DNA from: a virus
Lineage: Duplodnaviria > Caudoviricetes
Direction: 5' to 3' (one strand)
DNA length: 26,777 bases
Virus record (IMG/VR): IMGVR_UViG_3300029825_000757
Location: 1 to 26,777 of that record
How positions within the stretch are numbered: the first letter of the stretch is position 1; each line of letters starts with the position of its first letter. The notes under the pieces are model-generated. The model worked only from the letters and a program-made list of their open reading frames with translations. It made no database searches and was not told where the DNA came from. Below are positions 1-11,568 of the stretch, piece by piece. Made by a program: the position numbers and the translations under genes.

Positions 1-45
1 CTACTTTTCAACCCTTGACATCAATACTACTGTCTCCACATGGGT
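1..45 (-). pseudogene. rlmD: 3'-terminal fragment of 23S rRNA m5U methyltransferase RlmD/RumA (THVETVVLMSRVEK*), part of the att site
   Basis: Minus strand reads ACC CAT GTG GAG ACA GTA GTA TTG ATG TCA AGG GTT GAA AAG TAG, the typical RlmD/RumA C-terminus that follows DMFPxT. The rumA 3' end is a known target of serine-recombinase elements in Firmicutes. Confidence 0.85.
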
Positions 46-85: not shown

Positions 86-162
86 TGACGTACGAGGAAA
101 CATATCAATAGGTTTTTCGCTGCTTTTTCGGAAACCGTAGTATGAGGAAACATGTCAAATAC
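86..162 (-). repeat. Two direct repeats, 50 bp apart, resembling the rlmD attB left arm (PIDMFPRTS and VFDMFPHTT)
   Basis: TTGATATGTTTCCTCGTAC (90-108) versus TTGACATGTTTCCTCATAC (140-158), 17/19 identical. Both translate to the RlmD DMFPxT motif. Confidence 0.75.
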
Positions 163-2113
163 CAAAAACATCTTTTCTAAGTAATTTATAAGTATTAGTT
201 TCTGGTTTTACCAATGGGGCCATTGCATCACGTAAAAAAGTTGCTTTTGTATTTCCACATTGAGTTAATCGTAGAACTTTCCTAGTCTCAGTATAAAATG
301 TACCAGCTGCGGACTTCAAGTCATCTGTAGGATTTCCCCTCGCAATAGATTCATTTAATGCTTTAACTTTGATTGCTTTAATTTCATCAGTTTTTTCTTG
401 TTGATCACAAACCCAGCATAACTTCTCAATTATCTCATCTTCAAGTAAATAAGACTCGAGTTCACGTAACGATAGCACTGTGATTCCTTGTTTTTTTAGT
501 TCTTTAATCTCTTCCAGACTCCTATCATCCCTATCTATTAGTTTAATTATTGTATGATAGGGGTTCACTTTTTCTATCACGTCAAATAGCAATTTCTCTT
601 TTTCCTCAATATCTTTACAGCCGCCAACCGAACAGAACACTGCATTAGGGAATTCTTGTGAAAAGATATTTTTGTAACATAGCTCATCAAAGTTTGTATT
701 TCTTGCTCCTTCTGAACTGCCTTCGCAAAAAATTATGTAATTACCATCAGATACTCTTCTCATAACTGCACTACAAGATGATATATCCGACGTATTCTCT
801 TGAATTTTAAATGTAACTTGGTTATTTCCTTCTGCTAGTTTGATTGCTTCAAGGCACAAAATACTGATCATAACTGCCGGTCCATCTTCGATATACCAAC
901 ATCCAACCTCATTCTGTTGACTTAGAAGCCAATCTTTTGCTTTCTCAAGATACCTTTGATAACCTTCCGGTTTTAGCACACCTAAAGCAATCATAGCTAA
1001 ACAAGTAGAAAGGATATCGCCGCTAGTACGATTTGATGTAAGTGGCCATCCACCTGAGGTTAGTTGTGTTTGAAATAGCAACACTAAAGCTTGATCGAAA
1101 ATGCTAAGATTGATGTTTAATGGTTTTATGCGTTTCCAAGCAAAAGCAATCACACTTGCTATCGGTATGTAGTCGACAACAATTCTATTTATCCTTTTAT
1201 TTCCATCAGGTTCAGTGCAATACCGCTTCCATGGTTTTGAAACATCTACATTTCCTACGCATATTCCGTGCAACAACGCTTCTAAGCCAAATTTCGATGC
1301 TTTTCTAAGTAATAAGTCAGATCTGCAAAAAGAAAACAGCGTGAATCCTGAATGTACAGGGTCAATTCCCGATTGGTAAGTTTGCGATACTTCTTGTGTA
1401 TATCTATTAACCCAAGGGTCATATTCATTTAAATTGAACCACTCAACCGTTCTAAAGAAAGTCGCCGCTATAAAGTCTTCTTCCTCATCCCTTGCACGTA
1501 AGAAGTATTGGAAACGGTTAACCTCATTTAGCAAATCAGTAAGCTCAGGTAATGACAATTCCCGATCTCTTGCCTTTTCTATAATGTTATCTTCCCAATA
1601 ACGTAAATGGCCGTACTCTTCAAAGACTCTACAAATTGCACATCTCCAGCTTTCTCTAATCTCATCCGACGAAACAAGGGATTCTCCTTGGCTTTTAAAA
1701 TAAATAAGTGCTTCAAGATCAGCGTTGGTTCGGGCCTCAAGTGCGATAGGATACAACCATGCATGAGCTTTCTCTACCCCAGGTTGAACATAAATAAAGG
1801 CTTCATGAAACTTTTCGCTCACAGTAATTAACTCCGGAAAAAAAACACTGAATCCAACAAGACCCATTTGTAAATATTCTTCTTCCTCTACTAGCACATA
1901 TGGTAACCTGCGTTTTACTGCATCAAAATCAATAAACTCATTTAACTCATAGATTCGTGATTGTATCTTGTCAATGTCTTTTACAGAAGGAACACCTAAC
2001 CAACAAGAATTAATCCGCTCAGTTAATTGCCATATCTTAGAGATAGTTCTTGGAGTTGCTCGTGCAATAAAACGATTCATTCTAGATACATCTAATATAT
2101 TATTACTCATCAT
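155..2113 (-). CDS. Cargo protein: unknown N-terminus + prenyltransferase/squalene-cyclase (QW) repeats + C-terminal OLD-family-like TOPRIM domain; possible defence effector
   Basis: 652-aa ORF with RBS GAAAGGAG. QW motifs LLFQTQLTSGGW and KAKDWLLSQQNEVGCW; TOPRIM motifs IIFCEG, SVGG, LIDRD and RELESYL. Confidence 0.7.
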   Translation of the reverse strand: MMSNNILDVSRMNRFIARATPRTISKIWQLTERINSCWLGVPSVKDIDKIQSRIYELNEFIDFDAVKRRLPYVLVEEEEYLQMGLVGFSVFFPELITVSEKFHEAFIYVQPGVEKAHAWLYPIALEARTNADLEALIYFKSQGESLVSSDEIRESWRCAICRVFEEYGHLRYWEDNIIEKARDRELSLPELTDLLNEVNRFQYFLRARDEEEDFIAATFFRTVEWFNLNEYDPWVNRYTQEVSQTYQSGIDPVHSGFTLFSFCRSDLLLRKASKFGLEALLHGICVGNVDVSKPWKRYCTEPDGNKRINRIVVDYIPIASVIAFAWKRIKPLNINLSIFDQALVLLFQTQLTSGGWPLTSNRTSGDILSTCLAMIALGVLKPEGYQRYLEKAKDWLLSQQNEVGCWYIEDGPAVMISILCLEAIKLAEGNNQVTFKIQENTSDISSCSAVMRRVSDGNYIIFCEGSSEGARNTNFDELCYKNIFSQEFPNAVFCSVGGCKDIEEKEKLLFDVIEKVNPYHTIIKLIDRDDRSLEEIKELKKQGITVLSLRELESYLLEDEIIEKLCWVCDQQEKTDEIKAIKVKALNESIARGNPTDDLKSAAGTFYTETRKVLRLTQCGNTKATFLRDAMAPLVKPETNTYKLLRKDVFGI

Positions 2114-2339
2114 ATTTTAAATACGCTCCTTTCCAAAATTACAAGACAATTTTAGAAACCTCGATAAGAAAATTGTCATGAGTTCGTTCTAATATTCCTT
2201 TAGAGTTTGTTGATTGGCCCCCTACTCACTAATAAATAACAACATTCTCAATATTACTGTGTATACTTAACCAACTATAGTCAATTTTAGAGTAAAAAAA
2301 CGCCAACAAAGAGACATGTTTCCCAACCTGCCAATAAAG

Positions 2340-3911
2340 TTATATTTCTATATCAACTTCAACATCAGACTTAAACTCGACAACCAGTTTATCATCAAAT
2401 ACCGTTATCTTCTCAATAAGCCGCCTTACTAGTAAATCATCATATTCCTCAAGCTCATAAGACTGCTCATTCAAGAACTCTGTCATCTCAGCAATTCTTT
2501 GCCTTTTCCCTTCTCGCTCTGCATTTTCAGCTAATGTGTTTTGCTTCAATTCTCGTAGTCGGTAAATCTCATCTGCTACCTCTTTATAATCAGCTTTGGA
2601 ATTTGCCAGTCTAAGAAGCTCGTTTTGCAATTCATCCAATTTGGTATCAATATCATCGGTTGCTTTGTCATTTTCTTCATTAAGCACTGTAGCTATATTC
2701 TCCTGCAAAGTGGGAAGGAAAGTGTCCTTACTGCCCAACACCTCATTGATGGCTCTAACAACCACTGCTTGTAATACCTCTTCTTTAATCGTCGGCGATG
2801 TACACTCAGATCCTTTTTCTTCCAGACGGCTAACACATCGCCACACAATAGATTTACACCCCCGATTGTTCCAGTGCACCCGACGGTAAATTTCACCGCA
2901 CTGCCCACAAAACACAATACTCGATAAAGCATACTTGCTGCTATACACTCTCTTCTTTCCACCTTTACCTGAACGTAAATTTGCTCTTCTAACCACTTCT
3001 TCTTGTACCTGCATGAAAATTTCACGCGGGATAATTGGCTCATGGCTGTTTTCTACATAATACTGAGGGACAATTCCGTTATTGACCACTCTCTTCTTGG
3101 AAAGAAAATCAACGGTATATGTTTTTTGCAGTAAAGCGTCACCGATATACTTTTCATTCTGAAGTATCTTTTTGAGTGTCTCTGGTCTCCACCTAGGCTT
3201 GTTAGCTGCAGTAAGAATGCCGTCAGCTTCCAACCCACGACCTATTTGTAGAAGGCTTGCCCCTTCAAGATACTCTCGGTATATACGTTTTACTACCACT
3301 GCTTCTTCAGGCACAATAACCAGCTGTTTATTCTCATCTTTGGTATACCCTAAGAACCTCTTATGATTGACATGTACCTCCCCCTGCTGGTAACGGTATT
3401 GAATACCGAGCTTCACGTTTTGACTTAAGGATTGGCTTTCCTGTTGGGCTAAGGAGGCCATAATAGTCAGAAGAACTTCACCTTTAGAGTCCATTGTATT
3501 AATGTTCTCTTTTTCAAAGAACACAGGTATGTTTTTATCTTTAAGCTGCCTGATGTACTTCAAGCAATCCAGAGTATTTCGGGCAAAGCGGCTGATGGAC
3601 TTTGTAATGATCATGTCGATTTTACCCTTCATACACTCTTCAATCATCCGGTTAAACTCTTCACGCTTTTTGGTATTGGTTCCTGAGATTCCATCATCCG
3701 CAAAGATACCAGCTAGTTCCCATTCAGGGTTATTATTTATAAAGTTTGTGTAATGTTCAATTTGTACCTCATAGCTGGAAGCTTGTTCTTCGCTATCTGT
3801 AGAAACTCGGCAATATGCTGCTACTCTAAGCTTTTGCTTCTCTTCAGGCTTTACATTATTTCCAACACGAGCACGGGCAGGTATGACCTTAACATTTCTA
3901 TTAATCGCCAT
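2340..3911 (-). CDS. Large serine recombinase (resolvase + recombinase + Zn ribbon + coiled coil)
   Basis: VAAYCRVST catalytic motif, [22 protein letters not shown]...WRC zinc ribbon. Confidence 0.97.
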
Positions 3912-4329
3912 TCTTTATCACCTCGCTTTCTATCAGACTATAAACATACTCTGCTTGTCTAAACGGATCGTCATAAAGCTGTTCAGGTGTCGGCATACTA
4001 AAACGGAACTGTTTGATGACATTTATTTTAGGAGAGGGCTTTTTGATTTTCCCAAGCATTTGCGCTCTTTTTAACTTTTCAGCTTGTACCTGCTCAAAAA
4101 TATCGTTGTCAATAATCTGAGGGTAGTAGTCATCACCAAGGTATCGTTTGTTGGTGAGCATCTTAGCCACAGTTGAGTGATAGCGCTTTATACCAGCTTT
4201 CTCAGCCGCATCTATTAGAGAAAGCCCTGAAAGATAAGCTTTATATAACTCTTTTAACTTCAATACCGCTGGCTGATCAATCACTGCTTTTCCATCTTGA
4301 ATCATATATCCATAAAGCACATGTTGCAT
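3901..4329 (-). CDS. Small recombinase-domain protein lacking the catalytic domain (middle gene of the triplet)
   Basis: YGY...[22 protein letters not shown] matches the recombinase DNA-binding domain; abuts or overlaps both neighbouring genes. Confidence 0.85.
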
Positions 4330-5895
4330 TTATCTCTCCATCCTTTCCCTTAATGTAAGTCCACATTTCAAGCTAAAACCAATTTCAGCCGGTGAAAAGA
4401 CAATAATCCTCTCGACAAAACGCTCAAACATATCCTCATTAAAGCTTTCTATGTCCTCCGCTTTTGACACGTATTTAATGAGCTGGTTTAATTCAGCGGC
4501 TATGGTCATTCCACCGTTGATGCAGCGATATAGTGCAGTTTCTTGTTCTTTGAGTAGCTCAGCTTCCAGACGTAGTTCGTTGTTCTGCTTATTATAAAGA
4601 GCAGGGTCAAGATACCCTTTTACCATAAGATTAACAAGTACCTTAACCTGCTCTGTGTTTTCTTCTATCTTGGACTCTATGTCTTGAATTTTCACAAGGT
4701 TATCTGTATAATTTGTAGCTTTTAAACTTTGTAACAGCGGCCTTAAAATAAGTTTATGGCTAAAGATAAGTTTATTTATCATGGTTACAAAGGCTTGATG
4801 TATGTTATCTTCCCTGATATAAAGCATAGAGCATTCGTCAATGTTTGCGATGTGTTTAGAGCAACTCCACGCTATATATTTGTTGTTGCCCGATCCATAA
4901 ATCCTTCGTTTAAAGGTACTCCCACATTCGTAGCATTTAATCTTTCCGGAGAAAGGATAGCGGTTCGAATATTTACTACTACCTTTTTTTATACCCTTTT
5001 CTTTACGACGCTGCTTAATAACCTTGCTTACTGCCTCGAAATCTTCATGGCTTATAATCGCTTCATGATGATTTTCAATAAGGTATTGGTCTTTTTCACC
5101 CTTGTTCGTATGCCTAATAAAGTTTTCATCTGTGTAGGTTTTTTGCAGAAGCAAATCTCCGGTATACTTTTCATTCCCGAGAATGCTTCCGACAGTAGTA
5201 GAAGTCCACTGGCCACCTCTTTTTGTAGGAACTCCTTCAGCCTTTAATTCTTGAGCAATTCTCTGCGTTCCCTTTCCAGATAAAGCATCAGCAAAAATTC
5301 GCTTAACAACCTTTGCCTGCTCCTTATTTACAACTATCTGACCATTCACATAATCAAAGCCATAAGGCGGATATGAAAGCTTATAAGTCCCATTTTGAAA
5401 TCGTTTCTGAATAGACCACTTATTGTTTTCAGAAATCGAAATTGACTCGCTTTCAGCAAGGCTACTCAAAATAGTCAGCATTAGTTCGCTTTCCATGGAT
5501 TGCGTGTTAATGTTCTCTTTCTCAAAGTAAATGTAAACGCCAAGATCGTTTAGTTTTCTGACTAGTTCCAGACAGTCTGTTGTATTTCTAGCAAGTCTAC
5601 TGATCGATTTGGTAACTATAAAATCTATCTTTTTATTTTCACAATCAGAGATAAGTCGTAGGAGTTCTGTTCGATTTTCCTTTTTCGTACCAGAAATACC
5701 CTCATCATAATAAATACCTACAAACTCCCAATCTGGATTAGCTTTGATGTAAGATTCGTAATGAGTCTTTTGTGCCTCCAGACTGATAAGCTGCTCTGTA
5801 CTATCTGTAGAAACCCGGGCATAAGCTGCAACTCTTAGCTTTGGTCCTTTTGATGTAGGAATTTTACTTTTTGTTATCTTCGTCACCTTTCTCAC
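4330..5895 (-). CDS. Large serine recombinase (first of triplet)
   Basis: VAAYARVST, TKSISRLARN, NEKYTGD, CYECG...WSC. Start moved to GTG at 5895 (MRKVTKI), behind RBS AGGGAGGTG; GTG at 5898 is also possible. Confidence 0.95.
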   Translation of the reverse strand: MRKVTKITKSKIPTSKGPKLRVAAYARVSTDSTEQLISLEAQKTHYESYIKANPDWEFVGIYYDEGISGTKKENRTELLRLISDCENKKIDFIVTKSISRLARNTTDCLELVRKLNDLGVYIYFEKENINTQSMESELMLTILSSLAESESISISENNKWSIQKRFQNGTYKLSYPPYGFDYVNGQIVVNKEQAKVVKRIFADALSGKGTQRIAQELKAEGVPTKRGGQWTSTTVGSILGNEKYTGDLLLQKTYTDENFIRHTNKGEKDQYLIENHHEAIISHEDFEAVSKVIKQRRKEKGIKKGSSKYSNRYPFSGKIKCYECGSTFKRRIYGSGNNKYIAWSCSKHIANIDECSMLYIREDNIHQAFVTMINKLIFSHKLILRPLLQSLKATNYTDNLVKIQDIESKIEENTEQVKVLVNLMVKGYLDPALYNKQNNELRLEAELLKEQETALYRCINGGMTIAAELNQLIKYVSKAEDIESFNEDMFERFVERIIVFSPAEIGFSLKCGLTLRERMER

Positions 5896-5921
5896 CACGT
5901 TCACCTCCCTTCGGGTATGTG

Positions 5922-5953
5922 ACATATTACCCCCTTGTGCCCGGTATATCAAG
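5922..5953 (-). promoter_or_regulatory. Putative sigma-A promoter for the recombinase operon
   Basis: TTGATA-N17-TAATAT just upstream of the RBS; a degenerate relative of the motif at 13582 and 14832. Confidence 0.5.
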
Positions 5954-6311: not shown

Positions 6312-6725
6312 TTAATTATTTTTGTCAGGCTCATCGGAACGTAACTGTTCAAGCACTTCTTTAAGCTTATCGGGGATGGGGAGTCCAATAGCCACGACAT
6401 TCTCTAATATGGATATTCCCTCATTACTCAAGTAAAAGAAAATGACGGCGGTCCGAATCGCATTACCGCCGCCCAGAACTTGACTGTCAATAATATGTCC
6501 GACACCCACAAGTGTAAAAATAAGTACTTTTTTAAAGATACCCCTAGCACCAGTTTCACTTGATAGTGCTTTTTCCATAACCGCACGCATTACCCCAGTA
6601 ATGTAGTCAATGATCACAAAAGCGATTAGAGCATATATAAATCCATCAAAACCACCTAAAAACCACCCCAGCCACCCGCCAATGGCGGCAAAAATTATCT
6701 GAAAGTGCTTCCATATATCTTGCAA
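6312..6725 (-). CDS. Phage holin family protein (Phage_holin_4-like)
   Basis: Three hydrophobic segments; IDYITGV, GIFKK and FYLSNEGISILEN...GLPIP motifs; TTG start. Confidence 0.92.
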   Translation of the reverse strand: MQDIWKHFQIIFAAIGGWLGWFLGGFDGFIYALIAFVIIDYITGVMRAVMEKALSSETGARGIFKKVLIFTLVGVGHIIDSQVLGGGNAIRTAVIFFYLSNEGISILENVVAIGLPIPDKLKEVLEQLRSDEPDKNN

Positions 6726-6967
6726 TCCCGATCCACCCCCGTTGTTTCAGGAACGCCAGCTATATAGCCGAGCGTTCCTTTAGTCAGAAAATCTTCTTCC
6801 ATTGGAATCCGAAAACTTGGACCCCGCTCTCCACTAAGGGCCACACCTAACCGCCATTGGCCATCTTCTAGGCTTCCTGACTTATATGCGAAATTAAACC
6901 CTCCCCCTTTAGAAAACTCAATTAAAACTGGCCCCAACGAGAACGAGGTTTCTACTGCTTTCCCCCC
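6695..6967 (-). CDS. Putative -1 frameshift extension of the upstream holin-like protein
   Basis: Frame is open 6967-6695 with no RBS before TTG 6937; the slippery heptamer G GGA AAG at 6958-6964 lies within the short overlap with the upstream ORF. Confidence 0.5.
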   Translation of the reverse strand, partial: GGKAVETSFSLGPVLIEFSKGGGFNFAYKSGSLEDGQWRLGVALSGERGPSFRIPMEEDFLTKGTLGYIAGVPETTGVDRDCKIYGSTFR

Positions 6968-7356
6968 TCAACACCTTGCATTCCATTGTTCAAATAGACA
7001 CAGGACTCAATCAGGCTAGATAGGTACCCTTCTAGATCAGCTGTGACCTCCTGTAACTCCTTAAGAGTTTCCTTGGTCAACCTTGCCTTGACAGCTTTTA
7101 ATACATCTGACTTAATCTGTTCTTTTTCTTCATCTTTTAATTTACCGCCGTTTCGTTCCTTTAGGCTATCAACAACTGTTTGTTGGGCTTCAAGAACAGC
7201 AGCCCGAACAACATTTTCAACAGAATTAATCACCCGATTCGCCACTTCATTCTTTGACCTCTGGCGCAAATAGTCTGCTGCAAAAGCTACAGCAGCGCTT
7301 ACTGCAATAGCCATTAAAGGCAAAACTAGCTTTGTTACTTCGACAAATAAATCCAT
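6952..7356 (-). CDS. Holin-like membrane protein (LL-H-like; single N-terminal TM helix)
   Basis: Hydrophobic LVLPLMAIAVSAAVAFAA followed by a helical domain with QTVVDSLK and LIESCV; RBS AGGAGG; lies in the lysis position. Confidence 0.65.
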   Translation of the reverse strand: MDLFVEVTKLVLPLMAIAVSAAVAFAADYLRQRSKNEVANRVINSVENVVRAAVLEAQQTVVDSLKERNGGKLKDEEKEQIKSDVLKAVKARLTKETLKELQEVTADLEGYLSSLIESCVYLNNGMQGVEGGKQ

Positions 7357-7376
7357 TCCTCGATCCTCCTCTCCAT

Positions 7377-7410
7377 AAAAAAAAGACTCTTTGCTCAGTG
7401 AGCAAGCGTC
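7377..7410 (-). terminator. Intrinsic terminator after the head closure gene
   Basis: GACGC-TTGCTC-ACT-GAGCAA-AGAGTC stem-loop followed by a T8 tract. Confidence 0.7.
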
Positions 7411-7415
7411 CCAAA

Positions 7416-7733
7416 TTATACTTTCAACATGGCTTTGATTTCCAAGTATTCGTTTCGGTACTTGATGTTATCAATGAACTGAATATTGTACTGCTTTCCC
7501 TTAAAACGTATGATCATCTCTTCGTTTAAACCAGCTCTATATCTAATGGTGAATACCACCATTTTCTCAAGATGGATGGATGCAGCGGTAAAGTATACCT
7601 TTCCGTAAAGGTTAGATACTTTTGCCCATAAATTGGCTACTTCTACCCATTCTTTGGTTTGATTTCCATACATATCCTCAGTAATTCTAAGCTCTACAAG
7701 GGTAATTCTATGCCTAAGTTCACCGATGCTCAC
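7416..7733 (-). CDS. Phage head closure / head-tail adaptor protein
   Basis: IGELRHRITL...D.YGN...W...WAKV...FTIRYR...YNI..I pattern; follows the connector gene. Confidence 0.9.
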   Translation of the reverse strand: MSIGELRHRITLVELRITEDMYGNQTKEWVEVANLWAKVSNLYGKVYFTAASIHLEKMVVFTIRYRAGLNEEMIIRFKGKQYNIQFIDNIKYRNEYLEIKAMLKV

Positions 7734-7737
7734 ACTA

Positions 7738-8022
7738 TCACCAACTTTCCAGCCGATAGGGTGATAAGAGCCTTTTAATTACATCCTCCACAACTTTCAT
7801 ATCAAGATCTTCCCGGTGCTCGTACATGTTGGCGGTGATAAACAGGATAGCTTGATCTACTGTTTTGGGGACTTCCTCAAATTCATCAATACTCATTCTC
7901 AGTACCAATTCGCACAGCTGACTAGCTGTTTGAAGAAGATGGGCGATGAGCATATCTTCCTCATCGCCATCGACCCTCAAATATGATTTTGCTTCTACCA
8001 GCGTTACGGCCAATACGCTCAC
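7738..8022 (-). CDS. Head-tail connector protein (HK97 gp6-like)
   Basis: VTLVEAKSYLRVDGDEED...AILFITANMYEHRE...LLSPYR; follows the capsid gene. Confidence 0.92.
   Translation of the reverse strand: MSVLAVTLVEAKSYLRVDGDEEDMLIAHLLQTASQLCELVLRMSIDEFEEVPKTVDQAILFITANMYEHREDLDMKVVEDVIKRLLSPYRLESW

Positions 8023-11259: not shown

Positions 11260-11568
<309 letters not shown>

Follow-up and report, generated by a model that had tools for sequence, protein, structure and literature searches.

What is the product of a phage-borne gene in which QW repeats of the terpene cyclase and prenyltransferase type are followed in the same polypeptide by a TOPRIM nuclease? The question is raised by a gene located at one end of a provirus record, 54% complete, whose 26,777 nucleotides are the window analyzed here. 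A preliminary description had viewed the product as a single-gene defense protein in which an alpha-toroid sensor takes the place of the ATPase that usually accompanies OLD-type nucleases. The gene and the sites around it are as follows.

155..2113, minus strand: whole gene, 652 amino acids, comprising helical cap, alpha/alpha toroid, linker and AriB-like TOPRIM domain (AlphaFold2 mean pLDDT 84, pTM 0.83)
2340..5952, minus strand: serine-recombinase gene cluster of the provirus (three genes), directly upstream of the gene and co-oriented with it; context, not defense protein
2313-2323, plus strand: rlmD-like half-site, inverted copy, upstream of the gene (site search)
146..156, minus strand: rlmD-like attachment half-site reading DMFP that overlaps the stop codon of the gene; second copy at 96-106, minus strand
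1..42, minus strand: displaced 3' tail of rlmD/rumA, the attR-like end of the element; the last 11 codons start at GA

The gene follows immediately after the three genes of the recombinase cluster, which we take to be serine recombinases from their N-terminal resolvase motifs, and precedes the rlmD/rumA tail at 1-42. As the recombinase cluster is on one side and the tail is on the other, together with the half-sites at 146..156 and 96-106 that both lie between the gene and the tail, the gene is the terminal cargo of the element, which is the slot to which it had been assigned originally. GA has been described as the site targeted by serine-recombinase elements at the rlmD/rumA hotspot (PMC4120198). 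The overlap of half-site and stop codon is found in three genomes, namely the window and loci L002 (5055) and L003 (9947), and in L001 an rlmD tail is positioned just upstream of the gene copy. Given this threefold overlap and the inverted copy upstream in the window, recombinase sites may have served to capture or move the gene. The Bacillota subfamily is tied to the rlmD hotspot. The gene also was thought to be AT-richer than the phage core, and this is the case: its GC content is 0.364 (GC3 0.27), below the minimum of 0.423 among 163 core windows of the same length (0.441; sd 0.010), with intermediate values of 0.38-0.41 for the adjoining recombinase genes. A promoter and terminator scan gave a result at chance level. 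Within the gene lies a single 193-nt contig from RNA run X1, which does not show transcription.

Several further observations concern the element and its hotspot. In run X2, a contig corresponding to positions 1935-3083 carried 57 differences, of which those listed all were in the recombinase, and contigs over the gene were ~99% identical; thus, the gene also occurs beside another recombinase allele. At 6312-8022 the head genes directly abut the holin gene without tail genes between them (the holin was confirmed by Pfam and the others were read from open reading frames), and the element on this reading is tail-less and possibly satellite-like. An open reading frame of 101 amino acids between the terminase and portal genes (11260-11565, minus strand) had no Pfam match at 1e-4, and its start is presumably GIY-YIG-like as judged by motif. 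In L010 (10238-11337), a 138-amino acid open reading frame and a degenerate serine recombinase beyond the rlmD tail suggest tandem accretion at the hotspot. Shortened copies of the gene are present in L004 (7992-8960) and L013 (594-1727), a frequent state of accessory genes undergoing decay.

The domains and residues of the protein are given below, numbered according to the 652-residue open reading frame (models and alignments begin one residue later).

1793..2113, minus strand: N-terminal helical cap, residues 1-107 (AlphaFold2 model; best Atlas value 0.87)
821..1786, minus strand: predicted (alpha/alpha)6 toroid and putative sensor, residues ~110-431 (VIA, profile and Atlas)
1712..1714, minus strand: Glu134, invariant toroid residue (105 of 105 aligned toroids)
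1451-1453, minus strand: Arg221 (98% of 105 toroids)
1322-1324, minus strand: Arg264 (98% of 105 toroids)
1046..1075, minus strand: QW motif 1, FQTQLTSGGW (Gly and Trp 100% in 105 toroids)
896..943, minus strand: QW motif 2, KAKDWLLSQQNEVGCW (motif position and 105-toroid alignment)
740..820, minus strand: flexible linker and effector exchange junction, residues 432-458 (pLDDT <50; homologue alignments break here)
158..739, minus strand: AriB/DUF4435-like TOPRIM nuclease with helical C-terminal part, residues 459-652 (PADLOC and VIA)
722-724, 686-688, 527-535 and 455-457, minus strand: TOPRIM acids E464, D476, D527 with D529, and E553, respectively (alignment)

The sequence elements on which the fusion originally was recognized are all present: FQTQLTSGGW at residue 347, STCLAMIAL at 369, KAKDWLLSQQNEVGCW at 391 and SILCLEAI at 417, followed by FCEG at 462, DRD at 527 and RELESYL at 550 in the TOPRIM part. 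A pattern scan of the 652 residues detected no Walker A motif, and the only DxDD is the DRDD at 527 within TOPRIM, both as previously noted. Structure prediction yielded the toroid and the TOPRIM folds. The QW motifs and the TOPRIM acids are kept in homologues, which excludes chance, and 30 of 60 database matches are near-full-length homologues, ruling out a one-off rearrangement. Two details required revision. The QW-repeat region is indeed an alpha/alpha toroid, but it is far larger than two QW repeats and comprises six hairpins; the linker described as Ser-rich is enriched modestly in this residue (5 Ser in 22 residues), but the enrichment is not conserved among homologues. The helical cap is common to the TOPRIM and PNP subfamily, with the most distant members aligning only from residue ~110, and has no confident structural relative in the Atlas comparison (best 0.87).

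The AlphaFold2 model, built from 30 sequences, places 12 main helices within residues 112-426. When residues 109-430 were compared with alpha/alpha toroids in VIA, GH88 (Z 14.5), the TEP1 thioester domain (14.3), class II and squalene cyclases (13.4-14.2) and the geranylgeranyltransferase beta subunit (13.2) were recovered with rmsd ~4 Å over 240-270 aligned residues, values of 13-14.5 being only moderate for helical proteins. Foldseek searches of the PDB returned the same toroid class at E 1e-3 or weaker, with no match better than E 1e-3 for either the whole-gene or the TOPRIM model, and the viral fold library gave nothing at E 1e-3 or better. Single-sequence searches were similarly uninformative, being below cut-off in Pfam, empty in NCBIfam and no better than E 0.42 in the PDB. 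A profile of 129 family sequences found squalene-hopene cyclase at E 2.8e-14, compared to only E 1e-3 for complement C4, and the toroid scored 0.95 to SQHop_cyclase clusters in the Atlas. The domain is predicted from these models to be a complete six-hairpin barrel of the squalene-cyclase/prenyltransferase lineage. Class II terpene cyclases are defined by the catalytic DxDD motif and thioester domains of the complement/alpha-2-macroglobulin type by GCGEQ. Neither is conserved here: DxDD is scattered in the toroids of five of 105 relatives and is missing from the query toroid, as the preliminary description had remarked, and the pattern GC.EQ occurs in one of 105. The barrel fold and QW motifs are common to squalene-hopene and other class II cyclases and to prenyltransferase beta subunits, but the gene product has a single barrel without DxDD, scores below the curated cut-offs and is fused to conflict effectors. 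The toroid has a predicted cyclase fold, but probably is not a cyclase. T370 and D/E422 are 99% conserved in the 105 toroids and, with E134, R221 and R264, are a set of near-invariant polar residues that could, judging from the alignment, form an active site. The high whole-chain pTM hints, as a lead only, that TOPRIM may be docked onto the N-terminal part in the model.

The preliminary description had named effector swaps on the same N-terminus as a point to check. Such swaps are real and numerous. The first search produced 60 matches, comprising the query, the 30 near-full-length TOPRIM fusions (~42-66% identity), three partial ones, 20 PNP fusions and six others. An exhaustive search with the N-terminal 431 residues produced 293 clusters at 50% identity, the best 150 of which were used for a census of effectors; in 121 of the 150, the end of the toroid is complete and is followed by a tail of at least 45 residues. 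Among the 121 tails from these best 150 clusters are TIR (28), PNP (22), TOPRIM (6), CHAT (4), restriction endonuclease-like (3), EAD (3) and Schlafen (2) domains, as well as single instances of a kinase, an HNH domain, a metallophosphoesterase, a trypsin, a PDC-S32-like domain and a two-helix transmembrane segment. The endonuclease-like tails were called by motif, and two of the three also match PADLOC candidates. No effector was recognized in the other 47 tails of this sample, many of which resemble small DNA-binding HTH or winged-helix domains by inspection, with weak Pfam support for two. The remaining 29 of the 150 clusters include fragments, four tail-less proteins and one with an N-terminal kinase. 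As 47 of 121 tails were not recognized and four proteins have no tail, the role of the toroid goes beyond switching toxins. The exchanged effectors look intact: the TIR Glu motif is retained in 27 of 28 copies and the PNP motifs in 39 of 43. In a quick tree of 74 N-terminal modules, from which exact duplicates and short fragments were left out, the effector label changes at least six times and PNP is nested twice among TOPRIM rows. Two toroids in tandem within one protein (P0189), an unannotated helical tail of ~150 amino acids that recurs in five clusters (P0198, P0215, P0227, P0231 and P0291), and an HTH-like tail that recurs in six (the P0209 group) also were observed.

All of the PADLOC matches of toroid proteins lie in the tails, no PADLOC model covers the toroid, and no NCBIfam model (June 2026, including recent anti-phage models) passed its cut-off on the toroid in the 29 members tested. 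The notion that an alpha-toroid replaces the ATPase suits the TOPRIM effector, but it understates the reach of a domain that stays constant while the effectors vary across a much wider family. Because the same barrel is attached to about a dozen other toxic or signaling domains, it is likely to be an infection sensor. A domain that stays the same while it is joined to DNA-binding tails, adaptors and toxic enzymes of many unrelated kinds is best read as a sensor, and we infer that it binds rather than catalyzes.

The effector of the query gene was assigned originally to the OLD type. It is a TOPRIM domain with a helical C-terminal fold as proposed, but belongs to the AriB/DUF4435 branch typified by PARIS instead of to classical OLD or GajA. 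The PADLOC model AriAB matches the C-terminal domain at E 2.8e-7 and DUF4435 does so weakly (E 0.09). When folded alone the domain has a pLDDT of 91, and among 48,161 chains the top VIA match is AriB (8v46_D; Z 9.9, rmsd 4.0, 174 residues aligned). AriB is described as a two-metal tRNase that is active as a dimer (10.1101/2025.02.04.636281), and its tRNA cleavage and acids E26, D30, D88, E90 and E122 are recorded in a second report (PMC11464382). The counterparts E464, D476, D527, D529 and E553 occur in the same sequence order, where pairing was by order and motif and the alignment equates model position 7 with chain position 20, and all five are kept in 38 of 38 complete copies. The best 120 of 313 TOPRIM relatives consist of 86 ABC-ATPase-DUF4435 fusions and 34 toroid fusions, with the ATPase fusions being 44-50% identical to the query TOPRIM among the matches listed. 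AriAB was the best PADLOC model for nine of nine ATPase fusions tested. In a tree, 19 toroid-fused TOPRIMs split from 30 ATPase-fused ones with SH-aLRT support of 94, a topology that is compatible with a single old capture, the tree being unrooted and the direction not fixed.

Named carriers of the toroid family belong to Bacillota, Bacteroidota, Acidobacteriota and Verrucomicrobiota. The family is rare and patchy: it was not found in 400 other genomes of the phylum of one carrier, in 33 of the class of another, or in 17 and 60 congeners of two further carriers. Plasmids contained no toroid relative and annotated phages no match; one relative was found in viral contigs, in which the TIR subtype was not detected. 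The idea of a hidden partner gene was rejected as no neighbor recurs in the fetched loci, which represent the TOPRIM, PNP and few other subtypes. PADLOC models matched 21 of 100 neighboring open reading frames compared to three of 109 from 14 arbitrary 10-kb control stretches in five carrier genomes (p 4e-5), counts in which frames of one locus are not independent. When generic enzymes such as helicases, ABC transporters and amylase were excluded according to the author's judgment, the defense-specific matches were 11 of 100 and one of 109, respectively. Viewed per locus, the enrichment was modest: defense neighbors were present at six of 14 loci compared to none or one of 14 (p 0.016 to 0.077), and the other eight lacked a defense-specific neighbor. 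GmrSD and HNH genes are near the copy in L001 and type I restriction genes are near that in L021; HipA and DUF2971 genes flank the copy in L009. The Niallia copy (L003; L035-L036, G002) resides in an island that includes two Schlafens, HipA-HIRAN, Fic, a C5 methylase, a reverse transcriptase and unannotated proteins of 576 and 588 amino acids, and is situated beside a SPOUT methyltransferase gene that is read as rlmH.

PNP, TIR, CHAT and Schlafen domains form part of the anti-phage effector set (10.1101/2023.01.24.525353; PMC13056530), and PNP, Schlafen and AriB are established as effectors that phages activate (10.1101/2023.01.24.525353; PMC13056530; PMC11464382). The latter property underlies the mechanism proposed here, to which we assign a probability of roughly 0.6, namely that the gene is a complete sensor-effector whose toroid holds the nuclease off until a cue arrives and whose nuclease then cuts tRNA and stalls the infected cell. 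The toroid would keep the AriB-like TOPRIM inactive until it binds an infection cue; the cue-bound protein would self-associate and bring the nuclease domains together; and the paired nuclease would cut host tRNA so that the infected cell stalls and infection is aborted. Most of the swapped effectors are switched on by dimerization or oligomerization, and activation by self-association is postulated by analogy with them. In a similar manner, tRNA is the presumed substrate by analogy with AriB. A phage protein that binds the barrel is our first guess for the cue and a small molecule is the second. A defense role of any kind can be considered probable. The more ambitious proposition that the terpene-cyclase barrel became a general immune receptor for a small-molecule or lipid-like infection cue, with the Glu/Arg/Arg/Thr/Asp pocket as ligand site and with wiring to killing enzymes, EAD adaptors and DNA-binding regulators, is doubtful; if true, it would add a new class to the pattern receptors, and the complement barrel of animals would have a functional counterpart in bacteria.

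Three other explanations deserve consideration. The protein might act in defense by nicking or degrading DNA, like OLD or GajA, instead of by cleaving tRNA. OLD and GajA occupy the second to fifth positions in VIA (Z 7.4 and 6.4 for OLD and 6.1 for GajA), OLD C-terminal regions rank slightly above AriB in Foldseek with the two interleaved (E 4e-3 to 2e-2), and identity between the TOPRIM domain and AriB is just 12%; the Foldseek ranking and the low identity mean that the tRNA substrate is not secure. On the other hand, AriB leads by 2.5 Z units in VIA with the whole domain covered, and the sequence profiles identify AriAB and DUF4435 rather than Old or GajA. A DNA substrate consequently is regarded as unlikely. 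Less likely still is a toxin-antitoxin or stress-suicide module that stabilizes the mobile element or answers stress without being specific to phages, with the toroid as antitoxin in cis. The location of the gene at element termini and in islands, the HipA, Fic and nucleotidyltransferase neighbors in L003, L009 and L022, and the presence of a related ATPase-TOPRIM gene among toxin-antitoxin pairs on a Zymomonas plasmid accord with such a module. However, a single polypeptide provides no labile antitoxin for post-segregational killing, and the combination of TIR, PNP, CHAT and Schlafen is that of anti-phage systems.

The toroid itself might still be an enzyme, a repurposed barrel of the terpene-cyclase/prenyltransferase type that would produce or alter a small molecule or alter a target protein, with the reaction or its product activating the effector. 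The kinship to squalene-hopene and class II cyclases in the profile search (E 2.8e-14) and the retention of Glu, two Arg, Thr and Asp/Glu in 98-100% of 105 divergent members, a pattern reminiscent of an active site, are in keeping with catalysis. Nevertheless, DxDD and GCGEQ are not conserved, recurrent biosynthetic partner genes were not found in the loci, and HTH-like, EAD and transmembrane tails suit a binding domain better, so that a catalytic toroid is the least probable of the three explanations. The toroid as a sensor that restrains a tRNA-cutting TOPRIM remains the preferred reading.

The gene is best seen as a single-gene anti-phage sensor-effector with a new sensor domain, and in its presumed mode of action it resembles a fused PARIS. 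The AriB/DUF4435-like effector of PARIS has five matching acids, PARIS also is carried by proviruses, and the nearest sequence relatives of the TOPRIM domain, among the matches listed, are single-chain ATPase-DUF4435 fusions. In contrast to PARIS, an alpha/alpha toroid is present in place of the ABC ATPase, and in the TOPRIM tree the toroid fusions are grouped apart from the ATPase fusions (SH-aLRT 94). AAA_21 was not found in the window, nor was an AriA ATPase found among the scanned neighbors of toroid-TOPRIM loci. Members of the OLD family (P2 Old, GajA and the retron Eco8 effector) share with the gene product a TOPRIM domain and a helical C-terminal fold, but the product has neither an N-terminal ABC ATPase nor a UvrD or retron partner, and both the sequence profile and the closest structure favor AriB. 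Because the ATPase is absent, the gene is neither PARIS nor OLD.

The sensor half has its nearest described counterpart in APE, which comprises a toroid with a long charged helix, a ParA protein and a separate effector gene (10.64898/2026.10.19.760177). The APE toroid is described as TED-related and proposed to be a sensor of invaders, with TIR, caspase and phosphoesterase effectors (10.64898/2026.10.19.760177). The use of a toroid as a proposed sensor with variable effectors is common to both (10.64898/2026.10.19.760177), but here the effectors are fused in cis after a short linker, which sets the layout of the family apart from that of APE. Furthermore, the family profile matches squalene cyclases (E 1e-14) more strongly than complement C4 (E 1e-3), and the ParA-type Walker A pattern is absent from the 221 open reading frames of loci L001-L029. 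Schlafens, Shedu, Avs and PNP ATP nucleosidases likewise combine one sensor with an exchangeable effector, and PNP, TIR and Schlafen effectors are common to them and the present family, whose sensor instead is the QW toroid. The words 'prenyltransferase', 'squalene' and 'toroid' are missing from the main text of the Schlafen paper (PMC13056530), as is 'prenyl' from the main text of the PNP nucleosidase paper. In line with the preliminary description, which had not recognized the architecture as a named system, no description of it was found and the PADLOC and NCBIfam models do not extend to the toroid. In the open-access literature, APE was the nearest idea, other papers recovered dealing with ATPase rings termed toroidal, with plant terpenes and with microbial biosynthetic gene clusters, and a listing among supplementary predicted defense genes is possible. 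The toroid family is real and conserved, and as a sensor-effector family it is apparently undescribed.

Most new defense genes reuse known sensors, such as STAND, ABC ATPase, SAVED and TPR domains. The toroid is a sensor candidate without a PADLOC or NCBIfam match, and its partners in several phyla include 13 or more effector types; therefore, study of a single trigger would explain the whole family. The natural chimeras constitute ready-made swap experiments, and the toroid-TOPRIM form offers a direct test of ATPase-independent control of an AriB-type nuclease.

The TOPRIM searches also revealed abundant single-chain proteins of 530-550 amino acids in which an ABC ATPase is joined to DUF4435 (P0070-P0155 and L030 2996-4594). 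These fused-PARIS-like proteins have moderate AriAB scores and include representatives from Faecalibacterium and a Zymomonas plasmid. On the basis of sequence, they may constitute a PARIS subtype.
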